Shown piece by piece: positions 6,953 to 45,955 of a DNA stretch of 64,000 nucleotides. Position 1 is the first letter of the stretch. Each line of letters begins with the position of its first letter. Source of the stretch: Escherichia phage Ecwhy_1; sequence record MH791411.1; one strand, given 5' to 3'. The position numbers were made by a program, and so were the translations under genes. The notes beneath the pieces are model-generated. The model had not been told where the DNA came from. It saw only the letters and a program-made list of their open reading frames with translations, and made no database searches.

Positions 6953-7876
6953 TTACTTAAAAGTATTTACGATTTCCAAAACACTTTCAAGATACTTAGC
7001 ATCAAAAGTTTCAGTAAATCCTGATGGTAACTCTTCAGTACTTACAACACCACTTTCAATGTATTGCTTGATGAACTTTTCCAATAATAATGGTTTGTTA
7101 CCATCCTCAAAGTAACGTTCTACCAGTACAGTGTGTTCAAAATCAGAATCACGGCTTTGTTCATGAATTCGCCTCTTCATGTCACCAGTAATTCCGTATT
7201 TGTAAACGACTTTTGAGTTATTAGATAGTTTTTGTACATAGAAATATCCAGGCTTTGATGGTTGATAACCATACTCACCACATGATGGACATCCTCTTCC
7301 TGCCATATGAGATTTGGGTATTTGTTTAAAGACACCATGTTCAGGACAAATAATATCCACATGTTCATCACTAGTCTTGTAATCCACCAAGCTATAATCA
7401 TACTTATGGTTATGGATAGGCGACACAAGTTCAATGAAACGTTCAGTACTTCTTCCACCTTTACCAGAACATATTCCACAACTAGTTTTTCCTTTTAATA
7501 ATGTTGCGGCTGATACTTCCCAATCATGAACATCATTTGGATCGTTGTGACATGTTACCGTCACTTTCCCATTACAATCACGTTGTCTTTTGTAGATAGT
7601 TTTTTCAAATGACAATGTTGGATGAATTGTTTTTACTTTCTCTATGAACGTTTCAGTTGTGTATGCTGTATTTTTTTGGCAAATATTACATCCCTTTGCA
7701 GTAGATCTTACAATTTGCATAGGAGTGATTTTGAAATAATGACCACCTTCCACACAATAAAGTTCAACCTGTTTATGTGCATTTATGTATACCATTTTAT
7801 CAAACAAATAAACCCCAGTGCCATATTTTTCATTCACCGTATTGATAAATTTTTCTTCATTTGGATTCATTGTCAT
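6953..7876 (-). CDS. zinc-ribbon repeat protein with C-terminal T5orf172/GIY-YIG-like domain (307 aa); putative homing-endonuclease-like nuclease
   Basis: Three tandem ~55-aa modules each ending in C-x2-C (GCNICQK, CGICSGKG, GCPSCGEYG) with conserved FIE...KYDYS...ICPEHG; C-terminal GYFYVQKLS...YKYGITGDMKRRIHE is GIY-YIG/T5orf172-like. Confidence 0.55.
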   Translation of the reverse strand: MTMNPNEEKFINTVNEKYGTGVYLFDKMVYINAHKQVELYCVEGGHYFKITPMQIVRSTAKGCNICQKNTAYTTETFIEKVKTIHPTLSFEKTIYKRQRDCNGKVTVTCHNDPNDVHDWEVSAATLLKGKTSCGICSGKGGRSTERFIELVSPIHNHKYDYSLVDYKTSDEHVDIICPEHGVFKQIPKSHMAGRGCPSCGEYGYQPSKPGYFYVQKLSNNSKVVYKYGITGDMKRRIHEQSRDSDFEHTVLVERYFEDGNKPLLLEKFIKQYIESGVVSTEELPSGFTETFDAKYLESVLEIVNTFK

Positions 7877-7904
7877 TTCTCTTCTTCATTTATAATGTAC
7901 GCGT

Positions 7905-7933
7905 ATTATTACACAAAAAATGTGACATGTCAA
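7905..7933 (-). promoter_or_regulatory. sigma70-like promoter (TTGACA-N17-AATAAT) for the nuclease/fiber cassette
   Basis: Minus-strand TTGACA at 7933-7928 and AATAAT at 7910-7905, located between the capsid-gene terminator and the 6953..7876 start. Confidence 0.4.
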
Positions 7934-7935
7934 CA

Positions 7936-7966
7936 CAAAAAAGAAAAGGGACTCCGAAGAGTCCCT
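7936..7966 (-). terminator. rho-independent terminator after the major capsid gene
   Basis: GGGACTC-cgaa-GAGTCCC hairpin flanked by an A-run on plus (T-run on minus) and TATTGTTTTT on plus. Confidence 0.65.
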
Positions 7967-20993: not shown

Positions 20994-22025
20994 TTATAGT
21001 GATCTGTAAATTTGGATTAGAAGATTTTTATCGAACATAGGTGAATCAATTTCCATGATTTGTTGTAACACAATCTCATCAACTGACTCAGTACTTTCAA
21101 AGCTTTCACCATCTTCAATAAGTTCTTTGATACTTTGCTTGCTAGTAACAACGTTAAACTCACGAATGTTATAAAGTTTAGTAAAAGTATCACGAATAAA
21201 ACTAATCTCATCAGTAGTGATAGCAATATCAACTTGAACCTTTGAAATAGTATTGTCTTGAAGATAATAACTTGGATCTGTTAATAGTTCTGAAAGTGTA
21301 AATGTTCTATATTTTGGTGCTTCTGACCAAGAATGGAAAGTTGGTTCTTTACCATGTTCTAAAATCATCACACCTCTTGCATCATCCCATGTATCAGAAA
21401 AGTTATGTGGGAAACAGTTACCTGTGTAAATTACACGAGTTCCTTTAGATGTTGTTTTTGCTTGTCTCTTGTGGAAATGTCCACTAAAAACATACTCACA
21501 ACCACCAAAAGAACCTTCAGTCTCTTTACCATGATCTGGCATCTCAACCATTTTATTGAGCAAGTATCCAGGTAACTCTAAGTGACCAAAAACATACTTA
21601 CTTTTAAGTTGAGGTAGAACTTTGTATTCATCTTCAATCATAAATGGAATGAAAGTACAATCATCAAATGTTGTGATTTCATTAATGAACTCGATGTTCT
21701 CATAAACTTGTGCCATATTAATACTAGTAATGTCACGTTTATTTTTATGATACATGTCATGGTTCCCAACTAAGAAGTAAACCTTATCAAAGTTGTCATT
21801 TAGTAATTGTAGAATTTGTAAACCATAGTTTAATGTTTGAATGTTAATATTACTGCGGTTATGGAAGTAATCTCCCATAAACACGCATACAGTAATACCA
21901 TTTTTCTTAGCAAGTTCAATCATAAACTTGATGAAGTTCAAACAATCTTCGTTGTGCTGCTTGCTGTTATTCTTTAATCCTAAATGAATATCAGTAAATG
22001 TAATTGCTTTATCAAATAGAGCCAT
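20994..22025 (-). CDS. 47: Mre11/SbcD-like nuclease (gp47-like), ~343 aa
   Basis: Calcineurin-like phosphoesterase motifs FTDIHLG, GDYFH, GNHD, GHLE, SGHFH; ATG at 22025 with AAAGGA SD (track ORF starts 18 nt earlier). Confidence 0.85.
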   Translation of the reverse strand: MALFDKAITFTDIHLGLKNNSKQHNEDCLNFIKFMIELAKKNGITVCVFMGDYFHNRSNINIQTLNYGLQILQLLNDNFDKVYFLVGNHDMYHKNKRDITSINMAQVYENIEFINEITTFDDCTFIPFMIEDEYKVLPQLKSKYVFGHLELPGYLLNKMVEMPDHGKETEGSFGGCEYVFSGHFHKRQAKTTSKGTRVIYTGNCFPHNFSDTWDDARGVMILEHGKEPTFHSWSEAPKYRTFTLSELLTDPSYYLQDNTISKVQVDIAITTDEISFIRDTFTKLYNIREFNVVTSKQSIKELIEDGESFESTESVDEIVLQQIMEIDSPMFDKNLLIQIYRSL

Positions 22026-30011: not shown

Positions 30012-33000
30012 ATGTCACAACAAAAAAGGCAATCAAATTTATACGCTGGTGAAGATTGGACTCAAGTATATGAAAGCTTTTATAAGATCAATCTAACAGC
30101 TTATGACTTTGATACAATCCGTCAAAGTATGATTGACTATCTACGTGCTACGTACCCAGATTCTTTCAACGACTGGATCGAAAACGACCAGTTCATCTTT
30201 ATTCTAGATACCATTTCTATGCTAGGACAGAACTTAGCATTCCGTATGGATTTAAACACTCGTGAGAACTTCCTAGATACTGCTACTCGTCGTGCATCAG
30301 TACTGAAACTCGCAAAAATGATTTCTTACTCTCCACGCCGTTCATATCCAGGTCGTGCAGTTGCTAAATTAACAGAAATAAAAACCAACCAAGACGTTCG
30401 TAATAGTTTTAACGAATCACTTAAGGATAAAATCATTCGTTGGAATGACCCAATGGACACAAACTGGTATGAGAACTTCATTCTAGTTATGAACAGTTCA
30501 TTTGTCAGTACTAACCAGTTTGGTAATCCGGTTAAACGTATCGATATCAATGGTGTTTCTCGTCAGCTATATCGTATGAATACAATTCCAATGTCAGCAC
30601 CAAGTCTTCCATTCACAGCTACAGTTAATGGTGAATCGATGACATTTGAAGTTGTCAACCCTGATATTACAGCAGTTGGTGTTGAAGAGCGTCACCCTGA
30701 ACCACAAGAGCAAAAATATATCGTTTATCAGAATGATGGTAACGGATTTAGTTCACCAAATACTGGTTTCTTCGTTTATTTTGTTCAAGGGACATTGACA
30801 TACCAAGATTACCAATATAATATTCGTGAAGAAAACCGTATCCAAGACATCAACGTAGATAATATCAACGAAACTGATGTTTGGGTTCAGGAAATCAACG
30901 AAGATGGTATTGTACGTACTAAATGGACCAAAGTTCCATCTATGGAAAGTATCGCATACAATACTGTTAACCGTCAACTAAAAACAATCTTTGCTGTCAC
31001 AACTCGTGATAAAGACCAGATTACTATTAAGTATCCTGATTCTCGTAGTGGTGTTGTTCCTCGTGGGACGTATCGTGTATGGTATCGTGTTAGTAATGGT
31101 GAAACATACAACATTAAAACGTCTGAAATCCAGAACAAAAGTGTAAAATACACCTATAGAACCAAAACACAATCAAGCTATGAATCCAGTACTTTGGATA
31201 TTCGTTTCACATTGCAATATGAATCAGATCGTGCACAAAGTGCAGAAACAATTGAACAAATTAAGGCTCGTGCTCCACAAATGTATTACACTCAAAACCG
31301 TTTTGTTAACGGCGAAGACTATAACATTGCTCCGTTGAGTTTGGGTAACACAGTTCTTAAATCGAAAGCAATTAACCGTTTATATAGTGGACAGTCACGA
31401 TTCATTGATATTAATGATCCAACTGGTAAGTATCAAAACACTGATGTGTTTAGTGATGATGGTTCAATGTATCAAGAAAACACACAATTTAATAAATCTT
31501 TACAATTACCAACTACCAAAACAAATGCTAGTATTGTAATTGATAATATTCAGCCATTGATTGGTGAGAATGCTGTAATCCAACGTTATCAAGCATATCC
31601 ACCGAATACAATTGGTATTGAAATTCAACAAAAATGGACACCTGAATACAATTCTAATTACGCAACTAATACGTATGGTCGTATTATGGGGGCAACAGGT
31701 AACGTATTCGGAAATTATCAAGTTGGTACGTTGATTAAGTTTTCAAATGCCGGAACTACTGTGTGGGCTAGTATTGTTAGTGTTCTTGATAATGGATATT
31801 ACGTTCTAAGTACTTCAGTTTCATCAAATATGCAAGCACAAGAGTACATTTTACAATACAGAACACGTTTTAATAGTGTCGAAGTGCAAGCAATCGCTGC
31901 AATGCTTGATAAAAAGACAGATTTTGTTATTATTCATGATAAAGAAACAACTTCTTGGATTCCATTAGAAATCAGTACTGATGAAGATACTATTTCTTAT
32001 AATGGAAATGAAGTTCTTGTTATGATTAACATCAAATATACTGCTGAAACCTGGGAATTTGATGCGAATGGCGTTGAATATGTGTTCGTTGGTGGTGATA
32101 AAGTTCGTTTTTACTTCGTTTCTTCTAAAAAGATAACTGATATTAGTACTGGTAGTGTTCAAAGTGACAAAATTGAAATTTTATCATCAAATACCACAAG
32201 CAATAGTAATGCTGGGTTGACAAGTAACATAGATTTCCAAATTTATGACACAATTCAACAAGAAAACGGGTATCTTGATGGTTCTCGTGTGGTTATCACC
32301 TCTGAAAACGTTGATAGTAATGGAATCCCACTAGAACCTAATCAATTCAGAGAAATTGTACCAAATTGGACTGGTGAAGATTCAGTTAAATATGGTGGTA
32401 TATTGGTTTTCCAAGAAAACGATGATTTCACTATATCAGTACTGTCATTACCGAATGATACTTTCACTATTCTTGATTCTTCATGGGCTTATACAATGGA
32501 TCAAGCACTTGCAGAAACTAATGCGTATAAGAGAAGTGAATTTGTTCGCAACAATGCTATTCGATCAACAACATTGAGTGGTATCTATAGTAAAGGTTCA
32601 GGCTTTATAGTTGGCTTTAACTATGATGGTAAATATTACTTCATTGAACAAACTGTTGGTAATAATAATGACCGTTTAAACCAATTAATTGAGAACTTGA
32701 CCTATTCTGATGATACAACTGCTGCAACTCCTGAACTTGCGTTTTATCGTGCTATTGTTAATATCGGTACTAATGCTGATGTTAACCAAAAGTTAGATTA
32801 TTATGGTTATAAAGATGTAACTTCACAATATACCGTAAAAACGAATGCAAGAACTGGTATTGATTTCCACTGGAAACATTATGCACCAGATGATAATCGC
32901 ATTGACCCAAGTAGAACAAACTTGATTGACATGTATGTATTAACCAATTCATACAAAACTGAAGTTGATGTATGGTTGAAGAATGGAACACAAGGTAATA

Positions 33001-33507: not shown

Positions 33508-33553
33508 ATCATAAATAAATCAAATGAATGAACGAATTATATGGAGTCCAAAA

Positions 33554-36500
33554 ATGACTAATAATTTTAAGTTTCAACCTACACAGATGGCTGAAGCAGT
33601 ACAGAAGAAGCTTTTCATAAAAAGATTGCCTGAGTGGATGCAAGGCTTAGAAGATATTCAGAAAGTCAGTGATGATGTTATCCAACAATGGTTTAATCCG
33701 GCTGAAAACGAATTAGTTGACGGCTACATTGGTGACATGGGTTCTCCGGCAGCAGCAGGGAACATCTTCTTACACGAGTCAACAGTCGCACGTCAACTAT
33801 ATCAGTTGTCCACTGCGTATGTCTCAAGAAATGATGACTCCAGCATTCGTTCAATTCAATTTTATGATGATCTAGTTGGCTATATGAATCATTACGGTGC
33901 ACTAACCGAAAATGAAAGCCGTTTGTTTAATGGTAAGTTCTATTCATGGACCCCACCAATTAACCCAAATAAAATGAACAACTACAGTTCATACCTATGG
34001 GATTCCAAGAATAGCTATAATATCACAACTCCAGATTATATTGTAATGGAACGTGGTGCAGAAAATGGTAACACTTGGTCACTACAAAACTTCTGGTACA
34101 CATTAGGTGAAACTTTAGAAGATGGTACTATCCTAACTGAAGAACTAATGCAAGATTCCCGTTTTGTTCGTGCTCGTGCACCAATTATCGAATACAATAA
34201 AAATATCGAACTAATGAACTACGGTACTAAATTCCGTGGGACAGTTGATTTGTTCTCTGATATTATTAAACCTGAAGATATCGTACAAAAAGATATTAAC
34301 AGCGGTATACGTATTGATGGTATTATTCCACAAGATGGTATGCGTATTCTTTTCACCAGTATTGGTAACAATGGTGAAAACAACCGAATTTATAAAGTAT
34401 ATGTTAAACGTATGCAAGATGGAACACGTGTGTATGGTCTAGCATTAGATCCAGACGAAGAATCTGAAAGCCGTCCGAGTGGTGAACCACAAGATGGTGA
34501 CGTAGTTCTTATTATCAAAGGTAATGAATTTGGTAACAGTTCCATGTATTGGGACGGTTCTCATTGGATTCAAGCACAGTCTAAAACTTCTGTGAACGTA
34601 TTTCCACAATTCCAATTGTATGACCGTAATGGTGTTAAACTAAACAACACTACTACCTATCCATCAAGTACTTTTACTGGTTCTTCACTATTTGGTTTTA
34701 AAATTAACTATAATTATGCAACTGATAGCGTTTATGGTTATAATATTGAACTAGGTGATTACAATTATTACACATATGAGAATTTCCTACAATCAACTCG
34801 TTATACTTACGAGCATTTGGGTGTGGAAGTTGAAATTGATGGACTATATTACTATAACGTAATTGGTGAAGGTAATACAATGAACCTAGAAACTGATTGG
34901 GTTCGTAGTACTGAATACTCCAAACAATATGTTAAACAAACTCCACAGGTTGAACGTACAGTAATGTTCCGCGTGTTCAGTACTGTTTATGACATGGAAA
35001 GTTTCAAAGACCCAGTTGAAGGAATGTATGCTTATGTAATTGAAGTTGACAGAACTTATCAATATTACAAAGCAGAACGTGAAACATATCTTGATTGGCA
35101 TGTTATCGTTGGTGATGGGGTACAAAGCGTTAAGTACAATCATACATTTGAATTGGCACAAAAAGTACTAGATAATTCTGATGATATTATCGAACTAGTT
35201 GTTGATGGTGTGGAAATAAAAGAATACACCAAAACTGTAGTTAATAATCAAGTACAAAGTATTACAATTGATAGCTCTGTTGATTTGGATGAAGATTCTG
35301 TTGTACAAATCAGAACTTATAGTAGCACTATCACTCCTAATAAAGAGTTGGGTGCATATGAAGTTCCAATTAACCTACAAAATAACCCATATAATTCAAA
35401 CATTGAATACATCAACCAAGGTGATTACACCCTGCACTTCCAAGATATTATTCAAAAGAATATTACATCTGGTTCTGCTGATGACTTTAACAATTACGAA
35501 GAACGTTTGGCTGCTGGTTTGGTTAATAATGGTGTAGGCACTAAAATTATTCAAAACGAAGCGTCCATGTTACCACTAATGGCACATACCGCTAATGAAG
35601 ATATTGATTTGTTTGAATCAATCATGTTTATGCAAGCAGAATACTTCCGCTTCATTAACAAGTTCAACACTCAAATGCTTCGTTTGTATGAAGAAGACCC
35701 AAGTGCTTTTCTTGGTAATAGTGCATCAAACATCGTAGATGCGATTCTAACAGCTATTAATATGGGACGTGATAGTACATTCCCATTCTACTATGACAAC
35801 GTTGCAAGCACTGCTGGGTTTATTCGTGCATTTGTCCCACCAACTCCACAGTTCTTGGGTATTTTGCAAGCTTATACACCACAAAAAGCAACATTCTTAA
35901 CTGCTGGTAGTAAATCTAGCTGTTATAATATCAGTCATACTGGTATTATTTCAAAAGCATACCGTGTTATCAATGGTGTTGATAAAATGGATGACGTAGT
36001 TTTTGAATTGGAAAATCGTATCTTTAATAGTATTGATCTTACTTTCAAGGATATTGATTATAAACCAGTACTAAACAGTGAAGACCTATTCCCAACTCCA
36101 TATTTCACTGGTACTGATTATAGTGCAGAAGAAAAGAAAACTCTATTACTACGTGGTTACATTAACTTCACAGCAACCAATGGCATTAGTAACAGTACTC
36201 ATGATTATGATGCAAATAACTGGAGAACTTGGAACTATACTGGTAGTTATTATGTTGTTGATGGTCAACGTACTGAAATTCCTGCTCGTGGTTCATGGCG
36301 TGCAATCTATACTGACCAATATGGCACATATCGTCCAGCAACCCATCCGTGGGAAATGATGGGCTTCTCTCAACGTCCTACTTGGTGGAACCAAGAATAC
36401 GAACCAACCGCAGTTCAAGTTGGTGAACGTGAGGGTGATGTTGTTTATGTGTATGAAGCACTAGTAATGAATGAAAATGGTGATTTGGTCCCAAGTGGAT

Positions 36501-39500
36501 TGTGGGATATTGATGGTACTATCGGTGATAGCAGTACTGGTACTATTTTGTCAGGTGAACGCCGTGGTCAATATGACAAATACAAGCGTTTCGGTGTACA
36601 GCCATTTAAAATCACTAAGACTGGCGAGAAAACCAGTACTGGTATTGATATTTGTGAAGTTGAGTATATTGCACCTGAAGTTTTAGGTCTTGTTAGTGGT
36701 AATTTAGATCATCGTGCAGAACCGTGGTCTTATGGTGACATGGGTGACATGGAATTCACTTACATGAACACTGCGATGTTTGCTTATGACCAAATGCTTC
36801 TTCTATACAAAGCAAAACCAGCACAGTTTGCAAACTATTACTGGGATACCCGTAATGATAACCTTAAACCAGTTTATACTGATGGTTCACAGTTCCTTTA
36901 TGGTGAAACTCGTAAGCGTCTAAACTTTGACAGTACTACATTAGTACATGGTGAGAAAAACACCCGTACTATCGGTTATCAAATGTTTGTTAGTGACTAT
37001 TTGATGTATCAGAATAAGAACATTACCACCAAATACGGTGACGTTGTTCGTTCTTCTTATGTCAATGTCGCTCACAAAATTGGTGGCTTTACTAAAGCAG
37101 ACCAATTGACATTCACTGCTAAATCTTTCGGTTTGATTTCACAAGAAAACCAAACTATCGGTCTAGTTCGTTCCAATAACATTCGCGATGAGCAAATGAG
37201 TGCAGTAAAAATTACTTGGAATGGTAGTGCATATCAAATTGATGGTTATGATTTAGTTGGTGCTAAATTTAAATATAAAATTCCAGTTAAAAATGGAAGA
37301 AAAGTAACTCTTAAATTGGAAGACAGAACTGTTGTTCATTACAATGAATGGAAATCTGAAGGTACATTAGAATATGGTAAAATATTCAATACATACCAAG
37401 AAGTTTATACTTTCATTTGTGGATATGGTGAATATCTAAAAGAACATGGCTGGATTTTTGAAGATGTAAATGATAGTGGTACTCAACAAGACTGGACAAC
37501 TATTGCTAAAGACTTTGTTATTTGGAGTCAGAATAATTTAAGTACTGGTGAGTTCATCTCCTGCACTCCAAGTGCAGCTAATGCTAAATTTGGTGCGGAT
37601 TTTGGTTCAGTTCAATCTGTTACACAGAATAGTGGTGGTGTTTGGTCACTACTCGATGATGAAAACCAAGGTATCCGTCAATATGAAATCGAAACTTCGC
37701 GTATCGGTAACGTATTCACAGTGAGAACTACATCTGAATCACAAAAACGTATGGCGTTGATTCGTTTGAGCCTAAGTTCATATGAACACGCAGTTGTTTT
37801 TGATGATAAAACTATCTTTGGTGATTACATTTACCAACCAACTTATGGTGCTATTCAAGAATTGATTAAAATGTATGGTTACATTACTGGGTCATGGACT
37901 GGTCGCCTACAAGCACCTGGTTTCATTATCCTAGAAGCAGGAACTTTACCATCATTTGAAAAATTAGTAACTGATTTTGAATTATATTATAATAGTGAAA
38001 CTCCTGTGAGTGATGTTCAGCTTCAAGAGTTATCAAATCACTTGATTGGCTATCAAACTCGTGATTATCTACAACGTATGATTAGTAGTGATGTTAGTCG
38101 TGTTGATTTCTATAAAGGATTCATTCATGACAAAGGTACTAACCAAGTAATGGAAAAAGTACTACGCGTTTCTAAATCTTACGACACTGATGAATATAAA
38201 GCACTTCAGGAATGGGCATTTAAGATTGGTACTTATGGTAATATCAATGGTAAGAAAAATCTACAATTTAAACTAATCAATGACCAATTTAAACAACAAC
38301 CACAGATGGTTTCGTTTGATGTTAATGCTACATCAAATGGTACTGGTAATGGTATTGTTTATTACGGTGAACAAGGGGTTGACTCACGCTGGATTACTCG
38401 TCCAAATGGTAAGTTTTCATTCCCAATGCGTAGTGGAAGAAGTGAGAATATCCAACTTCCAGACATTGGTCCTGTAACACTAGATGAAATTTCATACGTT
38501 ACTAAAGATTTCAGTACTGCATATAATGATCGTATCAATTATATGAATAACAGTGGTGAAATCCCAGATTCTGTATGGATGTTTAAAGATGGTAATGATT
38601 TGTGGAATATTTTCGAACTAGTAGACACTGAAGTTGAGATGCTCTCTATCGTTCCAATTGAAAATACCGATGTATATGCAGAACAATTCTGTAAAGTAAC
38701 TCTAAGTGATGATATCCCACTAAATGATGGTGATTATTATTACTTTGTTGATGAAACTAACTTTATGCCAGATACATTGACTATAGAAAGTCAATATTAT
38801 ACTGCGGGTAATGACCCTAGAGTTATGGTAGTTCCGTTTGACACTTCAATCACTATTGACTTCACTGATCCTGATACTCGCCCACGCTTGTATCGTTATG
38901 TTTCACGATTCAGTACTGAAGAGATGCGTCAGGAATACATTGACAGAAAATATAGTTTTAAAGCTCCACAAAGTACTTTGTTTGACCGCCCAACCACATA
39001 TGATGAGCGTACTAACATTACTGCGTTGTACCTAAACGTGTTTGACCCAATCAACGGTGTTATTCCTGGTGCAGCGATGCAGAACGTTACCTACACATCT
39101 CCAGTTGACCCAGCACAATACAACAGCAATGGTGAATTGATTCAAGCATGGGGTGCTGATAAAGTTGGTCAGGTTTGGTGGAACACCAGCACTGCTTTCT
39201 ACTTAGATTACACTCGTGCAATCTATGATGCTGATGGTAATGTGGATGTTGATGCAACAAATGAATATAAACGTTATAACTGGGGCAGATTGCTACCGCA
39301 CAGTACTGTTGATGTTCTTGAATGGGTATGTTCACCAGTTGAACCATATAACTGGGACAAATACTGCAAAGACGTTGCTAACAAAAATAAAAACAACACT
39401 ATGTACCTACCAAGCGGAACCGCATTGGAAGATAATTATAGTACGTTCTTAGAATATGATAGCACAACTGATACTTATGTTACAAAATACTATTTCTGGG

Positions 39501-42500
39501 TTCGTGATACAATCTATGTACCACCATTGCATTCCAGAACTAAATCTTGTACTGATATTGCTCGTATTATTAAAGAACCAGCACAGCTTAACATTCCTTG
39601 GTTTGCACCAATCAATGAAAGCTCGTTCATTCTAAGTAATATGCAATTTGAAGTCAACGATGACACAAGTATTTTAACTGTTTCTTATTACATGGATAAT
39701 ACTGAAGTTATTAAACATGACCAGTATCAATTATGTAAAGAAGGTGATAGCTATAACTTCAATCCATCAATCTGGACTTCTATGTGGAATTCTATGATTG
39801 GTCAAGAAACTACTGAATCAGGAACTGTTATTGATTTACTATATCCTTTAGTACCAAACGGTTTAGGTTCTAATAAGACTTGGTTCCAAGATGTAATTGA
39901 AGCTCGTAGAAACTTTGTAGAAAGTGCAAATAACTATTATCGCTCACAGAATATAACAACTAACACTGTTCTAATGGACGAAGTGTTTAATGTTAAAACT
40001 ACTGAAGTTAACCCGAATGAAGTATCATATCGTGTACTAACTTACAATAGTGAATTAGTCATTGCACCTGAAAGTGACAAGTTCAAAGAAAACGACGCAG
40101 TACTAGTAAGTACTAGTGGTGTATTACCTAACCCACTATCAACTAGCTCTGTATATTTTGTGCATATTGATGCTAATGGTTATATTCATCTAATGAATAG
40201 TCCATCAAGTGCTGGTAGTGTGGTTACCATTACATTGGAAAACCGTGGTGAAGGTCAACAGAAAATGATTAAACAATCAGACTATGTTGAAGCACTAGGA
40301 ACTTCATTGGACATGACCCAGTACTGGTCACTAGCAGATTGGTATGATATTGGCTACGATAAAAATACTGCATATACACAAGAATCCAGCCTAGAAGATG
40401 CAAACACTAAGAACTATCAAGTTGGTGACATTATCAGAATTACAGATGTTGATGGCATCTGGACATTGTACATTAAAGCACAATCACGTGATTCAGTTTA
40501 CTGGAAAGCAATTGGTCGTGAAAATAGTACAGTTGAATTGAATGATATGTTATACGCTGACTATACAGTTCGTGATGCTAATGGTTCGTTGAGTAATCGT
40601 GAGATTAACGTTCGTAAAGCACTAGCTTTATTGAAGAACTCATTCGACTTACATCAGAGTGAAATTGTGTTTGATATGGTTAAGTATGTTCACGTAGAAC
40701 AAAGCGTTGTTGATTGGGTATTCAAAACATCTTACATTTATATTGTAGGTTTAGAACAATCATTAGTACAGAACTATTCCAACGACAACTTGATTAATCA
40801 AATCGTTGAGTACTTTGAAGAAGTTAAACCATATAGAACTAAGATTCGTTCCCAGATTGAACAGAAAACTTCAGATGATGATTTAATTAAAGGTTTGTGT
40901 AATGATTTAGATCCTAATGGCTATATATTTGCAGATGGGACTTGGGTTAAAACGGAAAAAGACATTTGGGATTATGAATATGCTCAATTCAATGAGGTAA
41001 CTCAACGTTGGGAGCAAGTTGGTGAATTGCCAAGTGATTTCGTAACACCTAATCGCCGTTTCCAAGAAATTGATGTTATCATGCACTACGACAACACTCA
41101 ATGTAAACCAAATGATAATTTGGCAAGTGTTGATGTATTGGAAGAAGTGAATAAGAAATATCAATCTAATGCACAAGATGTTGTTAGTAATTTTGAATTA
41201 CAACGTTACAAATATACATTCCCAGAATACAGTGATGAAGATTTCGACCTATTGGTTGCTTATCAGATGCAATTGTATTACCCAGAATTGAACGTAACTC
41301 TAGGGATTGCTTACGGTGTTAACCAATGGTATGCAGACCATGCAGATGATTTGGTAGCAACCGCAGAATTCACAGAAACGTTGAATCGTGTATATAAAGA
41401 ATCAACACAAAATGAAATGTTTAATGACGTAAATCATTATGTTCAGTATAACACACTCTCTAACCGTTTGAAATTGTACACAGGTGCAGATGATGAAGTA
41501 ATTCATGATGAGGTTGGATGTGGATTTAGTGGGTTAACCTATGATGATAATCCAAGCACCAGACTACCGTTTGGTTATGCATCCAGTACTGATTATAACT
41601 TTGGTTACTTTGAAGTTAGTAGTGAGTTGTATAAAAAGTATGTTTCTTTAATTAAAGAAAACAATACTACTGCAACTGATGATGAAGTTAGAATTATACT
41701 TGAAGTTGAATATGGTGTTTATTCATATCGCCATGTAGATGAAGATGGAAATCAACGATTCTACAATGACGCAATTCATGTATTGTCTGGTATGCGTGGT
41801 TTGTATGACAAAGATGCTACCGACCATTATGAAAAGGCTGAAGAAATACTAAGTAGAATGCCTATTGATATTCATGCATTTACTATGATGCCACGAAAAT
41901 ATGTTTATGTTAATGTTAATGGTGTATACGAGAGTATCCCAGATGACCAAAGCATTGATGATTTCATGGAAGACAAATTCATAACTGACGGTCAACTAGT
42001 TCAATTGGCAGAAATAAATCTTGATGACTTACCTCTTGATAGAAATAACCCAATGTACAGTGATTATCAGCACATCCTAGATAGCATCACCGATGCTAAG
42101 TACTACGATGATATGAATGCATTTGATAACCTAGCACTTGAATCACAAACTTCCGAGTTAAAATGGGAAGTTGAAGGTGACGAAGTAGATCCGTACATAA
42201 TCGACATTTCTGATATTAACCCATCAGGAAGAAAGATTGGTCAGATTCGCTTCACAGTTGATGGTTATGGATTCAATAGTGTTTCACTAGTTCAATTGAG
42301 AGACAATAGTAGATATAAAACTGAAGGTATGGTTATCATCAACCCTTATAAAACAACAGAAGCAATTGTTAGTATTCCTTCTTACGCTAAGATTGAAAAT
42401 GATATTAGTAAATCATACAGTAAGTATGATGAAAAATACTTCTATAAAATTAAATCAATTGTTAGTGATACAGAAGCTGAAGTAATTGACAATACCCTAT

Positions 42501-43525
42501 CTGATGGTGATAAGGTTATGATATTCACAACTGATGGTGAAGATTATGTGAGATACCAAAACAATGCATGGGAAACCATCTTGAGTGTATCAAAAATCAA
42601 AACTGACACCACACCAACCTTGTACACAGTAAGAAACACTGCGAACGGAACTGTAGAACTACTAGATAGTACTGGAGTTGTACTTCGTTATGATAACATC
42701 ACTAAACAACAACAGAATGAACCAGCAATACCTCTAGCATTGAACATCGTTCGTATTAGAACCTTTGCTGATCCAGAATTCTTGGTTGATGGTGTTAAGT
42801 TGTATGAAACAAATAGAAACTATGCTATCGACGCAATGAACTATGAAGTATTCTACGACACAACACTATACGGTGGTTCTTATAATGATGGAATTACACC
42901 AGATGACGTTGATGTTTGGGTAGTGTCTAACGAGATATTTGAAGTTGATGGTGTTACCATTGATAACGGATATAACTTACCAATTACTGGTGCAGGTGTT
43001 CTTAGTGAGTTAGTGAGAACCAAAATGACTGATAGTGTGGAAATTAACGTGTTCGAGTATGATGTTGGTATTATTCAACCAGTACTGAATACTGAAGGGG
43101 TATGGGAATATGCATATCCACTAGTTAGTGATACATATATTGGTGTAGTTGGTGGAACCGTAACTAACATTACTGCTATCAGTGAAGAAAATACTACTTA
43201 TGTTTCACAACCAGATTCAGTTAGTCCATATAGTGTTACTAATAATGTTCTATCTGGTGCTGGTGCAAGTATGAATGATATTATTTCTCTTGGTTTTGAA
43301 AAAGTTGAAGTACGTTTTGCAAATAACTTACTCCGTGGGGTAATGTATAGTGCAGAACACGACTTTAAAGAGAATGTGACATATTCATTTAATGGCTTGA
43401 ACTTAGGTAAAGTTAATTTACTAAAACGTTATAGTGTTAACAGTTATCCAATCGAACTATCTGTTTACTCCGATAGTTTGCAAATAAGTGGTACTGACAT
43501 TAAAAATCTATTAGAAGTTAAATAA
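33554..43525 (+). CDS. giant virion protein (~3323 aa), probable baseplate wedge (gp7/gpI-position) or fiber-network protein
   Basis: Uninterrupted 10-kb ORF; start taken at the second ATG with GGAG SD; CATAAATA late-type motif upstream; non-repetitive composition; position after gp6-like. Confidence 0.55.
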   Translation: MTNNFKFQPTQMAEAVQKKLFIKRLPEWMQGLEDIQKVSDDVIQQWFNPAENELVDGYIGDMGSPAAAGNIFLHESTVARQLYQLSTAYVSRNDDSSIRSIQFYDDLVGYMNHYGALTENESRLFNGKFYSWTPPINPNKMNNYSSYLWDSKNSYNITTPDYIVMERGAENGNTWSLQNFWYTLGETLEDGTILTEELMQDSRFVRARAPIIEYNKNIELMNYGTKFRGTVDLFSDIIKPEDIVQKDINSGIRIDGIIPQDGMRILFTSIGNNGENNRIYKVYVKRMQDGTRVYGLALDPDEESESRPSGEPQDGDVVLIIKGNEFGNSSMYWDGSHWIQAQSKTSVNVFPQFQLYDRNGVKLNNTTTYPSSTFTGSSLFGFKINYNYATDSVYGYNIELGDYNYYTYENFLQSTRYTYEHLGVEVEIDGLYYYNVIGEGNTMNLETDWVRSTEYSKQYVKQTPQVERTVMFRVFSTVYDMESFKDPVEGMYAYVIEVDRTYQYYKAERETYLDWHVIVGDGVQSVKYNHTFELAQKVLDNSDDIIELVVDGVEIKEYTKTVVNNQVQSITIDSSVDLDEDSVVQIRTYSSTITPNKELGAYEVPINLQNNPYNSNIEYINQGDYTLHFQDIIQKNITSGSADDFNNYEERLAAGLVNNGVGTKIIQNEASMLPLMAHTANEDIDLFESIMFMQAEYFRFINKFNTQMLRLYEEDPSAFLGNSASNIVDAILTAINMGRDSTFPFYYDNVASTAGFIRAFVPPTPQFLGILQAYTPQKATFLTAGSKSSCYNISHTGIISKAYRVINGVDKMDDVVFELENRIFNSIDLTFKDIDYKPVLNSEDLFPTPYFTGTDYSAEEKKTLLLRGYINFTATNGISNSTHDYDANNWRTWNYTGSYYVVDGQRTEIPARGSWRAIYTDQYGTYRPATHPWEMMGFSQRPTWWNQEYEPTAVQVGEREGDVVYVYEALVMNENGDLVPSGLWDIDGTIGDSSTGTILSGERRGQYDKYKRFGVQPFKITKTGEKTSTGIDICEVEYIAPEVLGLVSGNLDHRAEPWSYGDMGDMEFTYMNTAMFAYDQMLLLYKAKPAQFANYYWDTRNDNLKPVYTDGSQFLYGETRKRLNFDSTTLVHGEKNTRTIGYQMFVSDYLMYQNKNITTKYGDVVRSSYVNVAHKIGGFTKADQLTFTAKSFGLISQENQTIGLVRSNNIRDEQMSAVKITWNGSAYQIDGYDLVGAKFKYKIPVKNGRKVTLKLEDRTVVHYNEWKSEGTLEYGKIFNTYQEVYTFICGYGEYLKEHGWIFEDVNDSGTQQDWTTIAKDFVIWSQNNLSTGEFISCTPSAANAKFGADFGSVQSVTQNSGGVWSLLDDENQGIRQYEIETSRIGNVFTVRTTSESQKRMALIRLSLSSYEHAVVFDDKTIFGDYIYQPTYGAIQELIKMYGYITGSWTGRLQAPGFIILEAGTLPSFEKLVTDFELYYNSETPVSDVQLQELSNHLIGYQTRDYLQRMISSDVSRVDFYKGFIHDKGTNQVMEKVLRVSKSYDTDEYKALQEWAFKIGTYGNINGKKNLQFKLINDQFKQQPQMVSFDVNATSNGTGNGIVYYGEQGVDSRWITRPNGKFSFPMRSGRSENIQLPDIGPVTLDEISYVTKDFSTAYNDRINYMNNSGEIPDSVWMFKDGNDLWNIFELVDTEVEMLSIVPIENTDVYAEQFCKVTLSDDIPLNDGDYYYFVDETNFMPDTLTIESQYYTAGNDPRVMVVPFDTSITIDFTDPDTRPRLYRYVSRFSTEEMRQEYIDRKYSFKAPQSTLFDRPTTYDERTNITALYLNVFDPINGVIPGAAMQNVTYTSPVDPAQYNSNGELIQAWGADKVGQVWWNTSTAFYLDYTRAIYDADGNVDVDATNEYKRYNWGRLLPHSTVDVLEWVCSPVEPYNWDKYCKDVANKNKNNTMYLPSGTALEDNYSTFLEYDSTTDTYVTKYYFWVRDTIYVPPLHSRTKSCTDIARIIKEPAQLNIPWFAPINESSFILSNMQFEVNDDTSILTVSYYMDNTEVIKHDQYQLCKEGDSYNFNPSIWTSMWNSMIGQETTESGTVIDLLYPLVPNGLGSNKTWFQDVIEARRNFVESANNYYRSQNITTNTVLMDEVFNVKTTEVNPNEVSYRVLTYNSELVIAPESDKFKENDAVLVSTSGVLPNPLSTSSVYFVHIDANGYIHLMNSPSSAGSVVTITLENRGEGQQKMIKQSDYVEALGTSLDMTQYWSLADWYDIGYDKNTAYTQESSLEDANTKNYQVGDIIRITDVDGIWTLYIKAQSRDSVYWKAIGRENSTVELNDMLYADYTVRDANGSLSNREINVRKALALLKNSFDLHQSEIVFDMVKYVHVEQSVVDWVFKTSYIYIVGLEQSLVQNYSNDNLINQIVEYFEEVKPYRTKIRSQIEQKTSDDDLIKGLCNDLDPNGYIFADGTWVKTEKDIWDYEYAQFNEVTQRWEQVGELPSDFVTPNRRFQEIDVIMHYDNTQCKPNDNLASVDVLEEVNKKYQSNAQDVVSNFELQRYKYTFPEYSDEDFDLLVAYQMQLYYPELNVTLGIAYGVNQWYADHADDLVATAEFTETLNRVYKESTQNEMFNDVNHYVQYNTLSNRLKLYTGADDEVIHDEVGCGFSGLTYDDNPSTRLPFGYASSTDYNFGYFEVSSELYKKYVSLIKENNTTATDDEVRIILEVEYGVYSYRHVDEDGNQRFYNDAIHVLSGMRGLYDKDATDHYEKAEEILSRMPIDIHAFTMMPRKYVYVNVNGVYESIPDDQSIDDFMEDKFITDGQLVQLAEINLDDLPLDRNNPMYSDYQHILDSITDAKYYDDMNAFDNLALESQTSELKWEVEGDEVDPYIIDISDINPSGRKIGQIRFTVDGYGFNSVSLVQLRDNSRYKTEGMVIINPYKTTEAIVSIPSYAKIENDISKSYSKYDEKYFYKIKSIVSDTEAEVIDNTLSDGDKVMIFTTDGEDYVRYQNNAWETILSVSKIKTDTTPTLYTVRNTANGTVELLDSTGVVLRYDNITKQQQNEPAIPLALNIVRIRTFADPEFLVDGVKLYETNRNYAIDAMNYEVFYDTTLYGGSYNDGITPDDVDVWVVSNEIFEVDGVTIDNGYNLPITGAGVLSELVRTKMTDSVEINVFEYDVGIIQPVLNTEGVWEYAYPLVSDTYIGVVGGTVTNITAISEENTTYVSQPDSVSPYSVTNNVLSGAGASMNDIISLGFEKVEVRFANNLLRGVMYSAEHDFKENVTYSFNGLNLGKVNLLKRYSVNSYPIELSVYSDSLQISGTDIKNLLEVK

Positions 43526-43558
43526 CAAAAAGGAGAGCAAATGCTCTCCTTTTCTTTT
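43526..43558. terminator. bidirectional terminator between the giant ORF and the ClpA-like gene
   Basis: GGAGAGCA-aa-TGCTCTCC hairpin flanked by an A-run and T-run. Confidence 0.75.
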
Positions 43559-45847
43559 TTACGCAATAACTTTTTCTACTGCTTTAGTGCGTTTAGGTTT
43601 GATAGCCAATTTACCATCAATCACATCAAACGTCACGTTACCACCATTAACTAGAGAACCACACAACATCTCTTTAGCTAGTGGAACACGGATGTTTTGC
43701 TCAATAGTGCGTTTCATTGGACGTGCACCCATCCCAACTTTAACACCATTTGTTGCCAACCACTCACGTGCCGCTTTAGTCAGGGAAACTTTAACTTTGC
43801 GGTCTTTGATTTGTTCATTCAGACTACCCATGAACTTATCAATGATGCTGTCAATCGCTTCGCTGCTTAGGTCTTTGAATGTCACAATACTATCGATACG
43901 GTTGATGAATTCAGGTGGCAAGAATGCTTTAATAGCTTTATCTTGTGCTGTATCACTACCGCTCATCCCAATACTACGCTTGGTTGAATCTGCTGCACCA
44001 AGGTTAGTCGTCATAATAACAGTTACGTTATTGAAGTAAACAGTTTTACCTTGTGAACCAGTCAAACGTCCTTCGTCCAGAACCTGTAGGAAGGTTAGTA
44101 GTACTTTACGATCAGCTTTTTCGATTTCATCAAGCAACAGTACTGCATTCGGGAACTGCTCAATCTTGTCGAGTAGCAGACCGTTACCAGAATCGTGACC
44201 AACATAGCCTGGAGGTGAACCAATCAGTTTAGCAACAGTATGTTCCTGTGAAAACTCGGACATATCGAAACGAATCAGTTCGGAACCAGTTGCATCAGCC
44301 AGTGCTTTGGTAATTTCAGTTTTACCAGTACCAGATGGACCAACAAACATGAATGCACCTTGAACACTTGATTTATCACGCAGACCAGCACGAGCTACCA
44401 TCACGTTATCAACCAGTTTCTGTACTGCTTCTTCTTGACCGTATACACGAGAACGGAGTGCATCTGGTAGATTACGCATACGTTCACTTTCAGTGCAAGC
44501 AACCACGTTAATATCTAGGTTTGCGATACCTGCAACAACTTCTTGAATCAGTGCAACAGTGATGATGTTATCATCAGTTTCACGAGAACGTACTTTCGCT
44601 GCTGCCGCATCCATTAGGTCGATTGCTTTGTCAGGGAAGTGTTTGTTCTTCAGGAACTTATCACTTAGTGTAATAACTGCATCCATTGCTTCAGTACTGA
44701 ACTCTACGTTATGGAAAGTTTCATAAGTAGATTTCAAACCATTCACAATCGCACGGGTTTCATCAATTGTTGGCTCAACTACATCAATTTTCATGAAACG
44801 GCGAGTTAGTGCACTATCTTTTTCGATGTTTTTACGATATTCATCGTAAGTTGTTGCACCGATTACACGAATCTCACCACGAGATAGTGCAGGTTTGAGC
44901 ATGTTGCTCATATCCATAGAACCGTTGCTTGCTGACCCAGCACCAACCATAATATGGATTTCATCGATGAACACAATAGTGTTTTCACGTTTCTTCAGTT
45001 CTTTTAGTAGGTTATCGATACGTTCTTCGAACTCACCACGGTACTTAGTACCAGCAGTCAGTGCACCTACGTTCAGAGACAGAATTTCAACATCTTTAAG
45101 ATGCTCTGGTACTTCACCATCAGCGATTGCCTGTGCTAGACCATCAATGATTTGAGTTTTACCAACACCAGCTTCACCAGTCAGGATGGCATTCTTCTTA
45201 GTCTTACGGGCCAGAGTTTCAATCAGTGCAGAAAGCTCTTTCTGGCGACCAATCATTGGGTCAAGTTTACCTTCTTTTGCAAGTGCGGTTAGGTTAGTGG
45301 TGTAATCTTCTAAACCTTTTTGTTTGGACGATGGTTGCTGTTGTGCCACTTTTTTCTCCCCAGTTGGCTCATCACTAATGCTTTGAAGGTTGATTCCGTT
45401 GTCGATTGCTTCTACGTGCTTCTGTAGAGTTCGTGCTGCTTCAGTACAAGTGATACCCTCTTCACGCAATGCTGCTTCTAGTGCAGTATTTGGGAAGGAC
45501 AAACACTCAAACAGTACAAAATAAGCATCAATTGAGAAATCATCACGTTTAAGTTGCTCAATTACTGATTTCTTAGAAAGTTCCTGAACTACACGGTTCA
45601 CGAGAAGTGATGTGCGGTTCGCTTCATCACCATCAGCACTTTTAGGTGCATGTGGGAATGTTGTATTCTTCAGATATGCAATCAAACGACCGTGTAGGTT
45701 GTCTGCATCGATGTTCATATCTTCAAATACTGCTTTGATGCTATCGATTGTCAGTACTGTAGCACTTAGATGGTCAATAGTCAAGAATGTATGACCCAGA
45801 GAAGTTGCCAGTTCGTCGCTTTTTTTGAATAATTGGGTAAGATTCAT
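43559..45847 (-). CDS. clpA: ClpA-family AAA+ unfoldase (two AAA+ modules), ~762 aa
   Basis: D1 Walker A GEAGVGKT, Walker B IVFIDEIH, arginine-finger region ALTRRF; D2 Walker A GPSGTGKTE, Walker B LLLDEIEKA, sensor MTTNLG and GARPMKR; collinear with E. coli ClpA as recalled; AGGAGA SD. Confidence 0.9.
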   Translation of the reverse strand: MNLTQLFKKSDELATSLGHTFLTIDHLSATVLTIDSIKAVFEDMNIDADNLHGRLIAYLKNTTFPHAPKSADGDEANRTSLLVNRVVQELSKKSVIEQLKRDDFSIDAYFVLFECLSFPNTALEAALREEGITCTEAARTLQKHVEAIDNGINLQSISDEPTGEKKVAQQQPSSKQKGLEDYTTNLTALAKEGKLDPMIGRQKELSALIETLARKTKKNAILTGEAGVGKTQIIDGLAQAIADGEVPEHLKDVEILSLNVGALTAGTKYRGEFEERIDNLLKELKKRENTIVFIDEIHIMVGAGSASNGSMDMSNMLKPALSRGEIRVIGATTYDEYRKNIEKDSALTRRFMKIDVVEPTIDETRAIVNGLKSTYETFHNVEFSTEAMDAVITLSDKFLKNKHFPDKAIDLMDAAAAKVRSRETDDNIITVALIQEVVAGIANLDINVVACTESERMRNLPDALRSRVYGQEEAVQKLVDNVMVARAGLRDKSSVQGAFMFVGPSGTGKTEITKALADATGSELIRFDMSEFSQEHTVAKLIGSPPGYVGHDSGNGLLLDKIEQFPNAVLLLDEIEKADRKVLLTFLQVLDEGRLTGSQGKTVYFNNVTVIMTTNLGAADSTKRSIGMSGSDTAQDKAIKAFLPPEFINRIDSIVTFKDLSSEAIDSIIDKFMGSLNEQIKDRKVKVSLTKAAREWLATNGVKVGMGARPMKRTIEQNIRVPLAKEMLCGSLVNGGNVTFDVIDGKLAIKPKRTKAVEKVIA

Positions 45848-45885
45848 GTATTCTCCTAAATGAGTAGTCACTCTAATTAATAAAC

Positions 45886-45913
45886 ATTATATCACATTCT
45901 TTGCGTTTGTCAA
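45886..45913 (-). promoter_or_regulatory. near-consensus sigma70 promoter TTGACA-N16-TG-n-TATAAT driving the ClpA-like gene
   Basis: Minus-strand TTGACA (45913-45908), 16-nt spacer, extended -10 TGATATAAT (45894-45886); about 35 nt upstream of the ATG. Confidence 0.7.
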
Positions 45914-45955
45914 CAAGGTAAATAAAGATATACCCGATTTATTTTGGAGACAAAC

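Follow-up and report, generated by a model that had tools for sequence, protein, structure and literature searches.

The clpA-like gene and its surroundings

The window analysed here, a stretch of 64,000 nucleotides from Escherichia phage Ecwhy_1 (MH791411.1), is 99.8% identical to the jumbo coliphage vB_Ec-M-J and represents Asteriusvirus-type jumbo coliphage DNA. It harbours a clpA-like gene with virion genes on either side. The earlier note on this sequence had treated the segment as phage DNA, and an origin from the host is indeed ruled out by the vB_Ec-M-J match together with the flanking virion genes. The features of the locus are as follows (window coordinates).

43527..43554, no strand assigned: bidirectional intrinsic-terminator hairpin, common to clpA and the convergent 3333-aa gene (terminator scan)
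43559..45847, minus: clpA-like CDS, 762 aa plus stop codon (ORF list, profile and structure matches)
43613..44527, minus: D2 AAA+ module and D2-small domain, residues ~441-745 (Pfam AAA_2, ClpB_D2-small)
43709-43729, minus: D2 sensor-2 GARPMKR (translation)
43892-43915, minus: D2 arginine finger PEFINRID (translation)
43964..43972, minus: IGM tripeptide, residues 626-628, at the tip of a D2 helix-loop-helix (HMMER alignment to 1ksf)
44114-44140, minus: D2 Walker B LLLDEIEKA (translation)
44198-44209, minus: D2 pore loop GYVG (translation)
44318-44341, minus: D2 Walker A GPSGTGKT (translation)
44528..45277, minus: D1 AAA+ module, residues ~191-440 (Pfam AAA, AAA_lid_9)
44795-44809, minus: D1 arginine finger LTRRF (translation)
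44954-44977, minus: D1 Walker B IVFIDEIH (translation)
45035-45046, minus: D1 pore loop KYRG (translation)
45155-45178, minus: D1 Walker A GEAGVGKT (translation)
45398..45847, minus: N-domain, residues 1-150, divergent Clp_N double repeat (Pfam, AlphaFold model)
45853..45857, minus: Shine-Dalgarno sequence AGGAG, 5-nt spacer to the clpA ATG (read from the sequence)
45886..45913, minus: sigma70-type promoter TTGACA-N16-TG-A-TATAAT, 12 of 12 positions, extended -10 (promoter scan)

The ORF of 762 aa described in the earlier note exists, but it has to be placed on the minus strand, with its ATG at 45847 and its stop codon at 43559-43561. An alternative start, the GTG at 45871, would lead to a protein of 770 aa. 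Because this GTG has no ribosome binding site and lies too near the predicted transcript start (only about 8 nt away), the ATG is taken as the start of clpA, in agreement with the annotation of fEgEco12 g327.

Read in the direction of clpA, the genes for a gp15-like sheath stabiliser and a 498-aa virion protein precede it and the gene for a virion protein of about 3300 aa follows it, all of them pointing the opposite way. This arrangement is identical in 121Q, RaK2, GAP32 and SE_PL. The terminator hairpin behind clpA comprises 11-12 pairs, is flanked by a T run on each side and was found on both strands. The 5′ side of clpA is a 108-bp divergent promoter region and not a terminator, so that the gene is bounded by a bidirectional terminator, as had been proposed for both ends, on one side only.

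Perfect hexamer pairs occur twice in the window, once in the promoter upstream of clpA and once at 30795-30821 (plus strand), where the 15-nt spacer is poor. A -10 element with the extended TG is found at the equivalent place upstream of clpA in 121Q, RaK2, GAP32 and SE_PL, which represent four genera. The promoter which the earlier note had singled out as the strongest is therefore real and conserved, but it is not exceptional for a phage of this kind: 28 promoter sites of perfect consensus occur in the close relative TH47, all on one strand. The 11-mer TGTGATATAAT occurs 13 times in TH47, likewise on a single strand, and one copy lies upstream of clpP. In Asteriusvirus both clpA and clpP are located 34-38 nt downstream of a promoter of the type T(T/A)GACAA-N-TGTGATATAAT, and the IF3-clpS operon is preceded by a 12/12 promoter. 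In phages other than Asteriusvirus a separate clpP promoter is missing. No tRNA was found downstream of two tandem promoters at ~315.4 kb of TH47. In the related phage PA5oct, which relies on the RNA polymerase of its host, the promoters are of the type TTGAC/TATAATA (PMC7318152). For the expression timing of the clpA-like gene nothing was found in the literature.

Domain architecture and relationship to ClpA

Among the protein families the best match of the phage protein is the NCBIfam ClpA model TIGR02639 (751.6 bits), followed by the ClpB model with 637.5 bits, and the TssH model scores 542 bits. The scores are below both NCBIfam equivalog cutoffs (751.6 vs 993.15 for TIGR02639, 648.7 vs 1350 for NF008263). 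The protein is thus ClpA-like in architecture, while by NCBI's threshold it does not count as an equivalog. The match to phrog_4871 reaches 1019.9 bits. HMMER aligns E. coli ClpA (1ksf) and the phage protein in one stretch (17-741 against 20-734, E 5.6e-178), and Foldseek finds ClpA chains from ClpAP complexes with TM-scores of 0.82-0.88 (target-normalised) and 46-47% identity.

The TIGR02639 alignment begins at residue 3, in line with the proposed collinearity of the N-domain with that of ClpA. The sequence signal is weak, as Pfam Clp_N covers residues 11-59 with 21.2 bits, only just over its cutoff of 20.7. In the AlphaFold model the N-domain consists of eight helices (residues 3-148, pLDDT 52-89), and it is the most variable domain of the phage-clade ClpAs (mean entropy 1.62). 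The two AAA+ modules with intact Walker and sensor motifs, which had been read from the sequence before, are recovered by Pfam AAA and AAA_2 (for D2, AAA_2 167.6 bits and ClpB_D2-small 76.9 bits) as well as by the alignment to E. coli ClpA. Each of the D1 and D2 motifs listed above occurs once and intact. The ATPase motifs are near-invariant across 118 aligned homologs, 111 of which belong to the phage clade, and within this clade the catalytic motifs are kept down to 53% identity. The phage proteins form a separate clade: identities show a gap from 53% to 45%, and the cellular ClpAs come afterwards at 39-41%.

No coiled-coil middle domain is present between D1 and D2, and the structural model contains no long coiled coil. 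ClpB, ClpC, ClpV and Hsp104 each match in two stretches, the ClpB match breaking off at residue ~421 and resuming in D2, because the phage protein lacks their middle domain. An identity as ClpB, ClpV or ClpC is ruled out by this missing domain. The assignment to the ClpA type rather than to ClpB/Hsp104 made in the earlier note is borne out by the single collinear stretch, and the gene is predicted to encode a full-length, intact ClpA-type double-AAA+ protein.

E. coli ClpA (1KSF, 6UQO/6W1Z, 7UIV) shares with the phage protein the order N-domain, D1, D2 without a middle domain, the Walker A/B, pore-loop (KYR, GYVG), sensor and arginine-finger motifs, and a flexible D2 helix-loop-helix with a hydrophobic-Gly-hydrophobic tripeptide. 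However, the two proteins are only about 40% identical overall (46-47% over D1-D2), the phage N-domain is barely recognisable by sequence, and the phage tripeptide IGM is followed by S-G-S where E. coli ClpA has IGL followed by I-H-Q. The phage protein is also virus-encoded and belongs to a clade apart from the cellular ClpAs. ClpB and Hsp104 have the class-1 Hsp100 fold with two AAA+ rings in common with it, but ClpB possesses a coiled-coil middle domain, which the phage ClpA lacks, and has no ClpP-docking tripeptide.

Partner proteins and the docking tripeptide

According to the earlier note no ClpP or ClpS partner gene is visible. This is correct within the window. However, the genome encodes a ClpP homolog and a ClpS-domain protein; their positions were determined in TH47, a close relative with 99.9% ClpA identity to the window:

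TH47 27345-27977: ClpP homolog (36% identity to E. coli ClpP, E 2e-34)
TH47 204859-205389: ClpS-domain ortholog (reached via GAP32_314 and Yen9-04 g315)

The Ser-His-Asp triad of the ClpP homolog is intact and invariant in 66 phage-clade sequences. Its NCBIfam ClpP scores of 153-156 bits are below the cutoffs (249-309); the 156 bits reached with models of cellular ClpP compare with 51 bits for the head-maturation model related to ClpP. The neighbours of clpP in TH47 are non-structural (metallophosphoesterase, ligase, endonuclease) and the gene lies outside the head module. Twelve hydrophobic residues of the IGL pocket were listed by Lopez et al. (10.1101/820209), and eight of these have hydrophobic counterparts in the phage ClpP. 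The substituted pocket residues (A52S, Y60T, L114G, F82N/S) are themselves conserved within the phage clade, and therefore the docking site seems to be maintained but reshaped. The pocket shows no extra variability in the phage clade (mean entropy 1.13 vs 1.08 in cellular ClpPs). A loss of R192 in ClpP was considered and ruled out, since an Arg comes to stand there in a second alignment, which has a one-residue insertion, and the phage clade does not conserve this position. A tblastn search with E. coli ClpX matched only the D2 module of clpA in the genome.

The ClpS-domain ortholog is annotated as ClpS in 121Q (gp48). The Pfam ClpS score of the window phage's protein is 17.1 bits, below the cutoff of 23, and tblastn with E. 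coli ClpS gave no match in Escherichia jumbo phages. As read by eye from an alignment, of the ClpS residues that would face the ClpA N-domain E79 seems to be kept and K84 not.

The IGM tripeptide aligns column for column with I617-G618-L619 of E. coli ClpA, the ClpP-docking IGL, so that its recognition in the earlier note was correct. Residues 624-630 of the loop have a pLDDT below 50 in the AlphaFold model and are predicted to be disordered, as would be expected for a flexible docking loop. The helix-loop-helix is present in all homologs, but its tip varies. Among 111 phage homologs 25 tripeptide forms occur at the docking position, and residues 626 and 628 belong to the most variable ones of D2 (87th and 92nd percentile). 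The hydrophobic-Gly-hydrophobic pattern is kept in 74 of the 111 phage ClpAs (67%), while about a third of the clade is non-canonical (MNM, MSM, IGG, IGA, TAI). 121Q has LGL, Klebsiella phage RaK2 IGV, Cronobacter phage GAP32 LGM and Salmonella phage SE_PL MNM. In E. coli ClpX even the exchanges I268L and F270L severely impair the binding of ClpP (PMC7112951). In view of such defects and of the often non-canonical tripeptide, canonical docking may be lost in some lineages.

The clpA-like gene is known at the annotation level in dozens of records including 121Q gp581, and ClpA is conserved in Rak2-like phages and was discussed before (PMC6102473, PMC7824862), so that the novelty implied in the earlier note does not hold. 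The ClpA-like proteins of Rak2-like phages (121Q gp581, RaK2 ORF069, GAP32_229, Atu_ph07 gp292; phrog_4871) represent the same gene as that of the window and differ only in the tripeptide and in details of the promoter -35. Identical proteins (100%) are found in vB_Ec-M-J, fEgEco12, EC.P1 and WPEC3/5, and the identity is 92.8% for 121Q, 74.7% for RaK2 and 61% for GAP32. ClpA and ClpP occur together in Asteriusvirus, RaK2/K64-1, EJP2, SE_PL/Munch, CBB and GAP32, in Erwinia and Serratia phages and Yersinia fHe-Yen9, and also in the more distant PA5oct and Atu_ph07. Among the matches listed, every Rak2-like genus has ClpP alongside ClpA, and the identities of both proteins drop in parallel across the phages. 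The two genes are 87-95 kb apart and never adjacent. Atu_ph07 and PA5oct likewise carry ClpA, ClpP and ClpS homologs together (PMC6102473), but their ClpAs are only about 40% identical to that of the window, and PA5oct has all three genes within about 21 kb, whereas those of the window phage are 84-87 kb or more apart. The ClpP of CBB was detected in virions by a single peptide only.

Possible roles of the phage ClpA

We consider it probable that the protein is a hexameric double-ring AAA+ unfoldase belonging to the phage's own Clp proteolytic system. Because the phage also carries ClpP and a ClpS-like adaptor, ClpA is most likely part of a phage-encoded degradation machine, the other parts of which, a serine peptidase of the ClpP family and an adaptor-like protein with a ClpS domain, would be supplied from elsewhere in the ~350-380 kb genome. 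Transcription of clpA by the host RNA polymerase would not depend on the late structural operons on either side. The hexamer would then pull its substrates through the pore loops and, by way of the IGM loops, pass them to ClpP. This partner is probably the ClpP which the phage itself encodes, with the clade-specific substitutions in its docking pocket, although host ClpP might serve as well. Host proteins, early regulators of the phage and misfolded products of the very large phage proteins are candidate substrates. The variable tripeptide, the distance between clpA and clpP, the missing clpP promoter outside Asteriusvirus and the low Pfam score of the ClpS-domain protein weigh against such a phage ClpAP(S) machine.

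The strictly conserved site of clpA between virion genes would also fit a role in assembly. A translocase or assembly role was suggested by Iyer et al. (PMC7824862), and a stand-alone unfoldase or chaperone, which without a peptidase folds, translocates or assembles large virion proteins such as the adjacent 3333-aa protein, would explain why the gene order is identical in four phages and why a third of the clade can do without a canonical tripeptide. We nevertheless regard this as unlikely. The gene is orientated opposite to both neighbours, has its own sigma70-type promoter and ends at a terminator, and its expression therefore seems uncoupled from the late structural operons; moreover, ClpP and the ClpS-domain protein are co-inherited with ClpA, all homologs retain the helix-loop-helix and two thirds a canonical tripeptide. 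The absence of the ClpA-like protein from the virion proteome of phAPEC6 (62 proteins; PMC7247149) is neutral with respect to assembly.

The earlier note had named a redirection of host ClpP among the possible roles. The idea that ClpA has to act via host ClpP for want of an encoded partner is undercut by the finding of the phage's own ClpP with an intact catalytic triad and of a ClpS-domain protein. That the phage ClpA docks to host ClpP and redirects host proteolysis, the phage ClpP having an unrelated role, appears quite improbable to us, even if IGM, placed exactly where the host IGL docks, departs from it only conservatively and a strong host-type promoter would fit expression before host shut-off. 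Among phages of enterobacterial hosts the tripeptide differs (IGM, LGL, IGV, MNM, LGM). ClpP is nearly identical among these hosts. With such similar host ClpPs and the sensitive interface known from E. coli, the differing tripeptides do not fit easily with a host pocket that stays the same. It is hardly conceivable that we are dealing with a mislabelled ClpB/Hsp104/ClpV-type disaggregase, with host DNA or with a degenerate gene: the ClpB and TssH models do score 637 and 542 bits and some records read 'heat shock protein' or 'ClpB protein', but ClpB, ClpC and ClpV match in two stretches where ClpA matches in one, the window is phage DNA, and the catalytic motifs are intact and conserved in the clade.

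Starting from the favoured phage-encoded machine, one may speculate further that the ClpA-ClpP(-ClpS) protease of Rak2-like phages is orthogonal, its docking interface having diverged from that of the host, so that no cross-assembly takes place and a private degradation channel results. This is a tentative idea. The channel would serve host takeover or counter-defence, and the variable ClpA tripeptide, the ClpP substitutions A52S, Y60T, F82N/S and L114G and a conserved ClpP C-terminal tail of ~18 aa might be marks of such an interface. Some loops and pockets appear to be paired, IGV with the bulkier Y82/F112 in RaK2 and VGF with the smaller T92/T114 in one metagenomic pair; these pairings favour a drifted interface in an anecdotal way.

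Phage-encoded unfoldase-protease pairs are barely studied. Because ClpA, ClpP and a ClpS-like protein are kept together across a clade of ~350-kb phages, controlled proteolysis seems to matter for their infection cycle. It might be used for the recycling of host proteins, the timing of phage regulators, the quality control of virion proteins of 3000 residues or the removal of host defence proteins. Should the phage pair prove to be insulated from the Clp components of the host, nature would here provide an example of an orthogonal interface in an AAA+ protease.

The clpA gene and its product

The 762-aa ORF described in the earlier note is present in the window. It lies on the minus strand, which that description had left out, and the interval 43559-45913 assigned to it comprises the coding sequence plus the promoter.

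45913-45886, minus: clpA promoter TTGACA-N16-TG-A-TATAAT, 12/12 consensus positions, extended -10
45853-45857, minus: ribosome-binding site AGGAG of clpA, read from the sequence
45847 (ATG) to 43559-43561 (stop codon), minus: clpA, 762 aa, from the ORF list of the window
43527-43554, scored on both strands: terminator hairpin dividing clpA from the convergent 3333-aa gene

The gene had also been described as bounded by bidirectional terminators. This holds for the 3′ end, where the hairpin lies, but not for the 5′ side, which is a divergent intergenic region of 108 bp (45848-45955).

Phage ClpA contains the Pfam domains AAA, AAA_lid_9, AAA_2 and ClpB_D2-small, and Clp_N is marginal in the N-terminal 186 residues (21.2 bits versus a cutoff of 20.7). 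The top NCBIfam model is that of ClpA (TIGR02639), which matches residues 3-741 in a single stretch with 751.6 bits, whereas the ClpB (637.5 bits), TssH and ClpK/G models each match in two stretches; phage ClpA stays under the NCBIfam equivalog cutoffs. The best match among PDB sequences is E. coli ClpA (1ksf, E 5.6e-178, residues 17-741 versus 20-734). In this alignment all catalytic motifs are intact, and the tripeptide IGM (residues 626-628) lies exactly under I617-G618-L619, the ClpP-docking IGL of E. coli ClpA, as the earlier note had stated. PDB matches to ClpB, ClpC and Hsp104 all break where the middle domain would be. Because ClpA ranks first in one stretch, these other matches are split and the motifs are intact, a ClpB/Hsp104 identity, which that note had named as an outcome speaking against its reading, was rejected on profiles and PDB sequences. 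In the AlphaFold model (input alignment of 49 sequences, mean pLDDT 79) the N-domain has eight helices, there are two AAA+ modules, and the loop of residues 624-630 is disordered; Foldseek against the PDB retrieved ClpA chains from ClpAP complexes (TM 0.82-0.88, 46-47% identity). The protein is ClpA-like in architecture and a member of a divergent clade.

Escherichia phage vB_Ec-M-J shares 99.8% identity with the window region; for fEgEco12, EC.P1, WPEC3/5 and TH47 (MT446416.1), a close relative classified as Asteriusvirus, the figure is 99%. Identity to 121Q, PBECO4 and phAPEC6 is 84% for DNA and 92.8% for protein, and to Klebsiella phage RaK2 74.7% for protein. The ClpA family is phrog_4871, and Iyer et al. 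mention ClpA, ClpX, ClpP and ClpS of jumbo phages (PMC7824862). Because the gene is annotated and discussed in the literature, the finding is already known from annotations and comparative genomics, and its novelty is low; a functional study of this gene was not found in the literature searched.

Window segments 6960-7938 and 15023-15752 are strain-specific insertions or replacements, since TH47, elsewhere 98% identical, lacks a counterpart of either. Segment 17681-18158 is 81% identical also to a second, distant TH47 site (146046-146524), pointing to a dispersed repeat or duplicated gene.

Promoters and gene neighbourhood

The near-consensus sigma70 promoter of clpA was found as claimed. The only other perfect TTGACA/TATAAT pair of the window (30795-30821, plus strand) has a poor 15-nt spacer; because of this spacer, and of a strand nearly devoid of such sites in this phage, that pair is probably a chance match. 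For the phage, however, the clpA promoter is unexceptional: sigma70-like sites with at least 11/12 matches number 117 in TH47 and show an extreme strand bias, with 109, including all 28 perfect sites, on the strand that also carries clpA. The 11-mer TGTGATATAAT, which marks a distinct promoter family, occurs 13 times in TH47, always on the clpA-bearing strand, and in the window solely at 45886-45896 (minus). In Asteriusvirus it lies directly upstream of clpA and of clpP, 38 and 34 nt from the respective ATG; in RaK2, GAP32 and SE_PL, clpP lacks a promoter of its own.

In 121Q, RaK2, GAP32 and SE_PL the gene order is identical: a gp15-like sheath stabiliser and a 498-aa virion protein, both pointing away from clpA, then clpA, and a virion protein of ~3300 aa converging on it. 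In all four the -10 element with extended TG, 35-47 nt 5′ of the clpA start codon, is kept in an otherwise diverged spacer, which speaks for a functional promoter. PA5oct, a related phage, is sensitive to rifampicin, with strand-specific early transcription from TTGAC/TATAATA promoters (PMC7318152). It is therefore likely that clpA is transcribed by host RNA polymerase, apart from the surrounding late structural operons.

The converging gene of the window, a 3333-aa ORF (33524-43525, plus), adjoins clpA also in these four phages, and a homolog of its product was detected in the phAPEC6 virion (gp245, 382 kDa). The plus-strand reading of 45848-45955 contains GGTAAATAAAGATATACC ~35 nt ahead of the start codon at 45956, with AAATAAATAC in the corresponding position of GAP32 and SE_PL. 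Because these resemble ATAAATA, the motif reported for late promoters of phage CBB, the 108-bp region may carry back-to-back host-type and late-type promoters. A second promoter family with AGTACTGTATAAT is clustered at TH47 88-165 kb. Tandem perfect promoters (TTGACAA-N-GATGTGATATAAT) are located 94 bp apart at TH47 ~315346 and ~315440 (minus; L008 ~21346-21440); with neither an ORF of at least 40 aa with a ribosome-binding site within 150 nt downstream nor a tRNA (ARAGORN), a non-coding RNA is possible there.

ClpP and ClpS homologs

The earlier note had seen no ClpP or ClpS partner. Both genes are indeed absent from the window, but not from the genome: in TH47, reassembled from loci L002-L009 (352,450 bp, the window corresponding to 244231-306369), homologs of both are present, and ClpX was not found.

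TH47 27345-27977 (L002), minus: ClpP homolog (tblastn with E. coli ClpP, 36% identical, residues 17-203, E 2e-34)
TH47 204859-205389 (L006:8859-9389), minus: ClpS-domain protein, 181 aa, ortholog of GAP32_314 and fHe-Yen9-04 g315

The ClpP homolog has an intact Ser, His, Asp triad. Cellular ClpP models give it 153-156 bits, the ClpP-related model for head maturation only 51 bits. The RefSeq name of the homolog, "head maturation protease", probably derives from the broad PHROG family phrog_94; the phage clpP neighbours in 121Q, RaK2, GAP32 and SE_PL are non-structural genes, and the T4-type prohead protease is a separate gene (PMC7247149). E. coli ClpS as a direct query gave no match. Pfam ClpS domains were found in GAP32 (GAP32_314, 41.8 bits) and Yersinia phage fHe-Yen9-04 (g315, 54.6 bits). 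The TH47 ortholog (36.5% identical, E 7e-34, same IF3-X-Y gene order) reaches 17.1 bits, under the threshold, and has an additional ~70-aa N-terminal region; several records, 121Q (gp48) among them, name it "protease adapter protein ClpS". A 12/12 promoter site at TH47 205991 precedes this IF3-clpS operon (IF3-ClpS-like-X).

Phage ClpP and phage ClpA as tblastn queries retrieve the same jumbo phages at parallel identity levels: Asteriusvirus, RaK2/K64-1, EJP2, SE_PL/Munch, CBB, GAP32, Erwinia pEa_SNUABM phages, Serratia BF and Yersinia fHe-Yen9, and more distantly PA5oct and Atu_ph07. In a large protein database both clades are discrete, ClpA (P0001-P0112) reaching down to 53% identity, with a gap between it and the cellular ClpAs at 39-41%, and ClpP (P0121-P0186) down to 61%.

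The docking interface and the probable role of phage ClpA

Across the ClpAs of this phage clade the ATPase motifs are nearly invariant. The docking tripeptide, surveyed in 111 of them, takes 25 forms (including MGM, IGM, IGV, LGM, IGA, LGL, MSM, IGG, MNM and VGF), is canonical hydrophobic-Gly-hydrophobic in 74, and its positions 626 and 628 are at the 87th and 92nd percentile of variability within D2, the second AAA+ module; the six cellular ClpAs sampled have IGF or MGF. Phages of enterobacterial hosts carry IGM, LGL, IGV, MNM and LGM, and ClpP is nearly identical among these hosts. In E. coli ClpX, I268L and F270L cause severe defects in ClpP binding (PMC7112951). Taken together, these points make a fixed host pocket an unlikely common target, and we regard hijacking of host ClpP as improbable.

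Compared at the residues that the ClpA-ClpP structure paper (10.1101/820209) lists for the pocket, phage ClpP shows L23M, L48V, F49W, A52S, Y60T, Y62Y, F82S (S or N in the clade-specific form), I90V, M92M, F112L, L114G and L189I, and 8/12 positions are still hydrophobic. Altered residues are kept in the clade (S52 in 58/66, T60 in 57/66, G114 in 62/66), and overall the pocket is not more variable than in cellular ClpPs. The clade has a common ~18-aa C-terminal tail (…NEEGKYLVKRRGGVEEWV) adjoining the pocket-lining C-terminal strand. The R192 equivalent is alignment-dependent and not conserved, so no conclusion was drawn from it. The phage ClpP docking site would seem maintained but reshaped, and a phage ClpA-ClpP pair appears to fit the pattern of pocket and tripeptide better than loss of function.

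The original observation is confirmed, its interpretation in part: it stands for the ClpA type, the position of IGM and the promoter, but not for novelty, and the idea of a lacking partner is undercut by the homologs outside the window. As the most likely mechanism, held with somewhat more confidence than doubt, phage ClpA would be the unfoldase subunit of a phage-encoded ClpAP(S) protease; a peptidase-independent assembly chaperone is a good deal less probable, though ahead of hijacking. The points of interest are the substrates of such a ClpAP(S) protease and a possible insulation of the phage ClpA-ClpP pair from the host Clp system.
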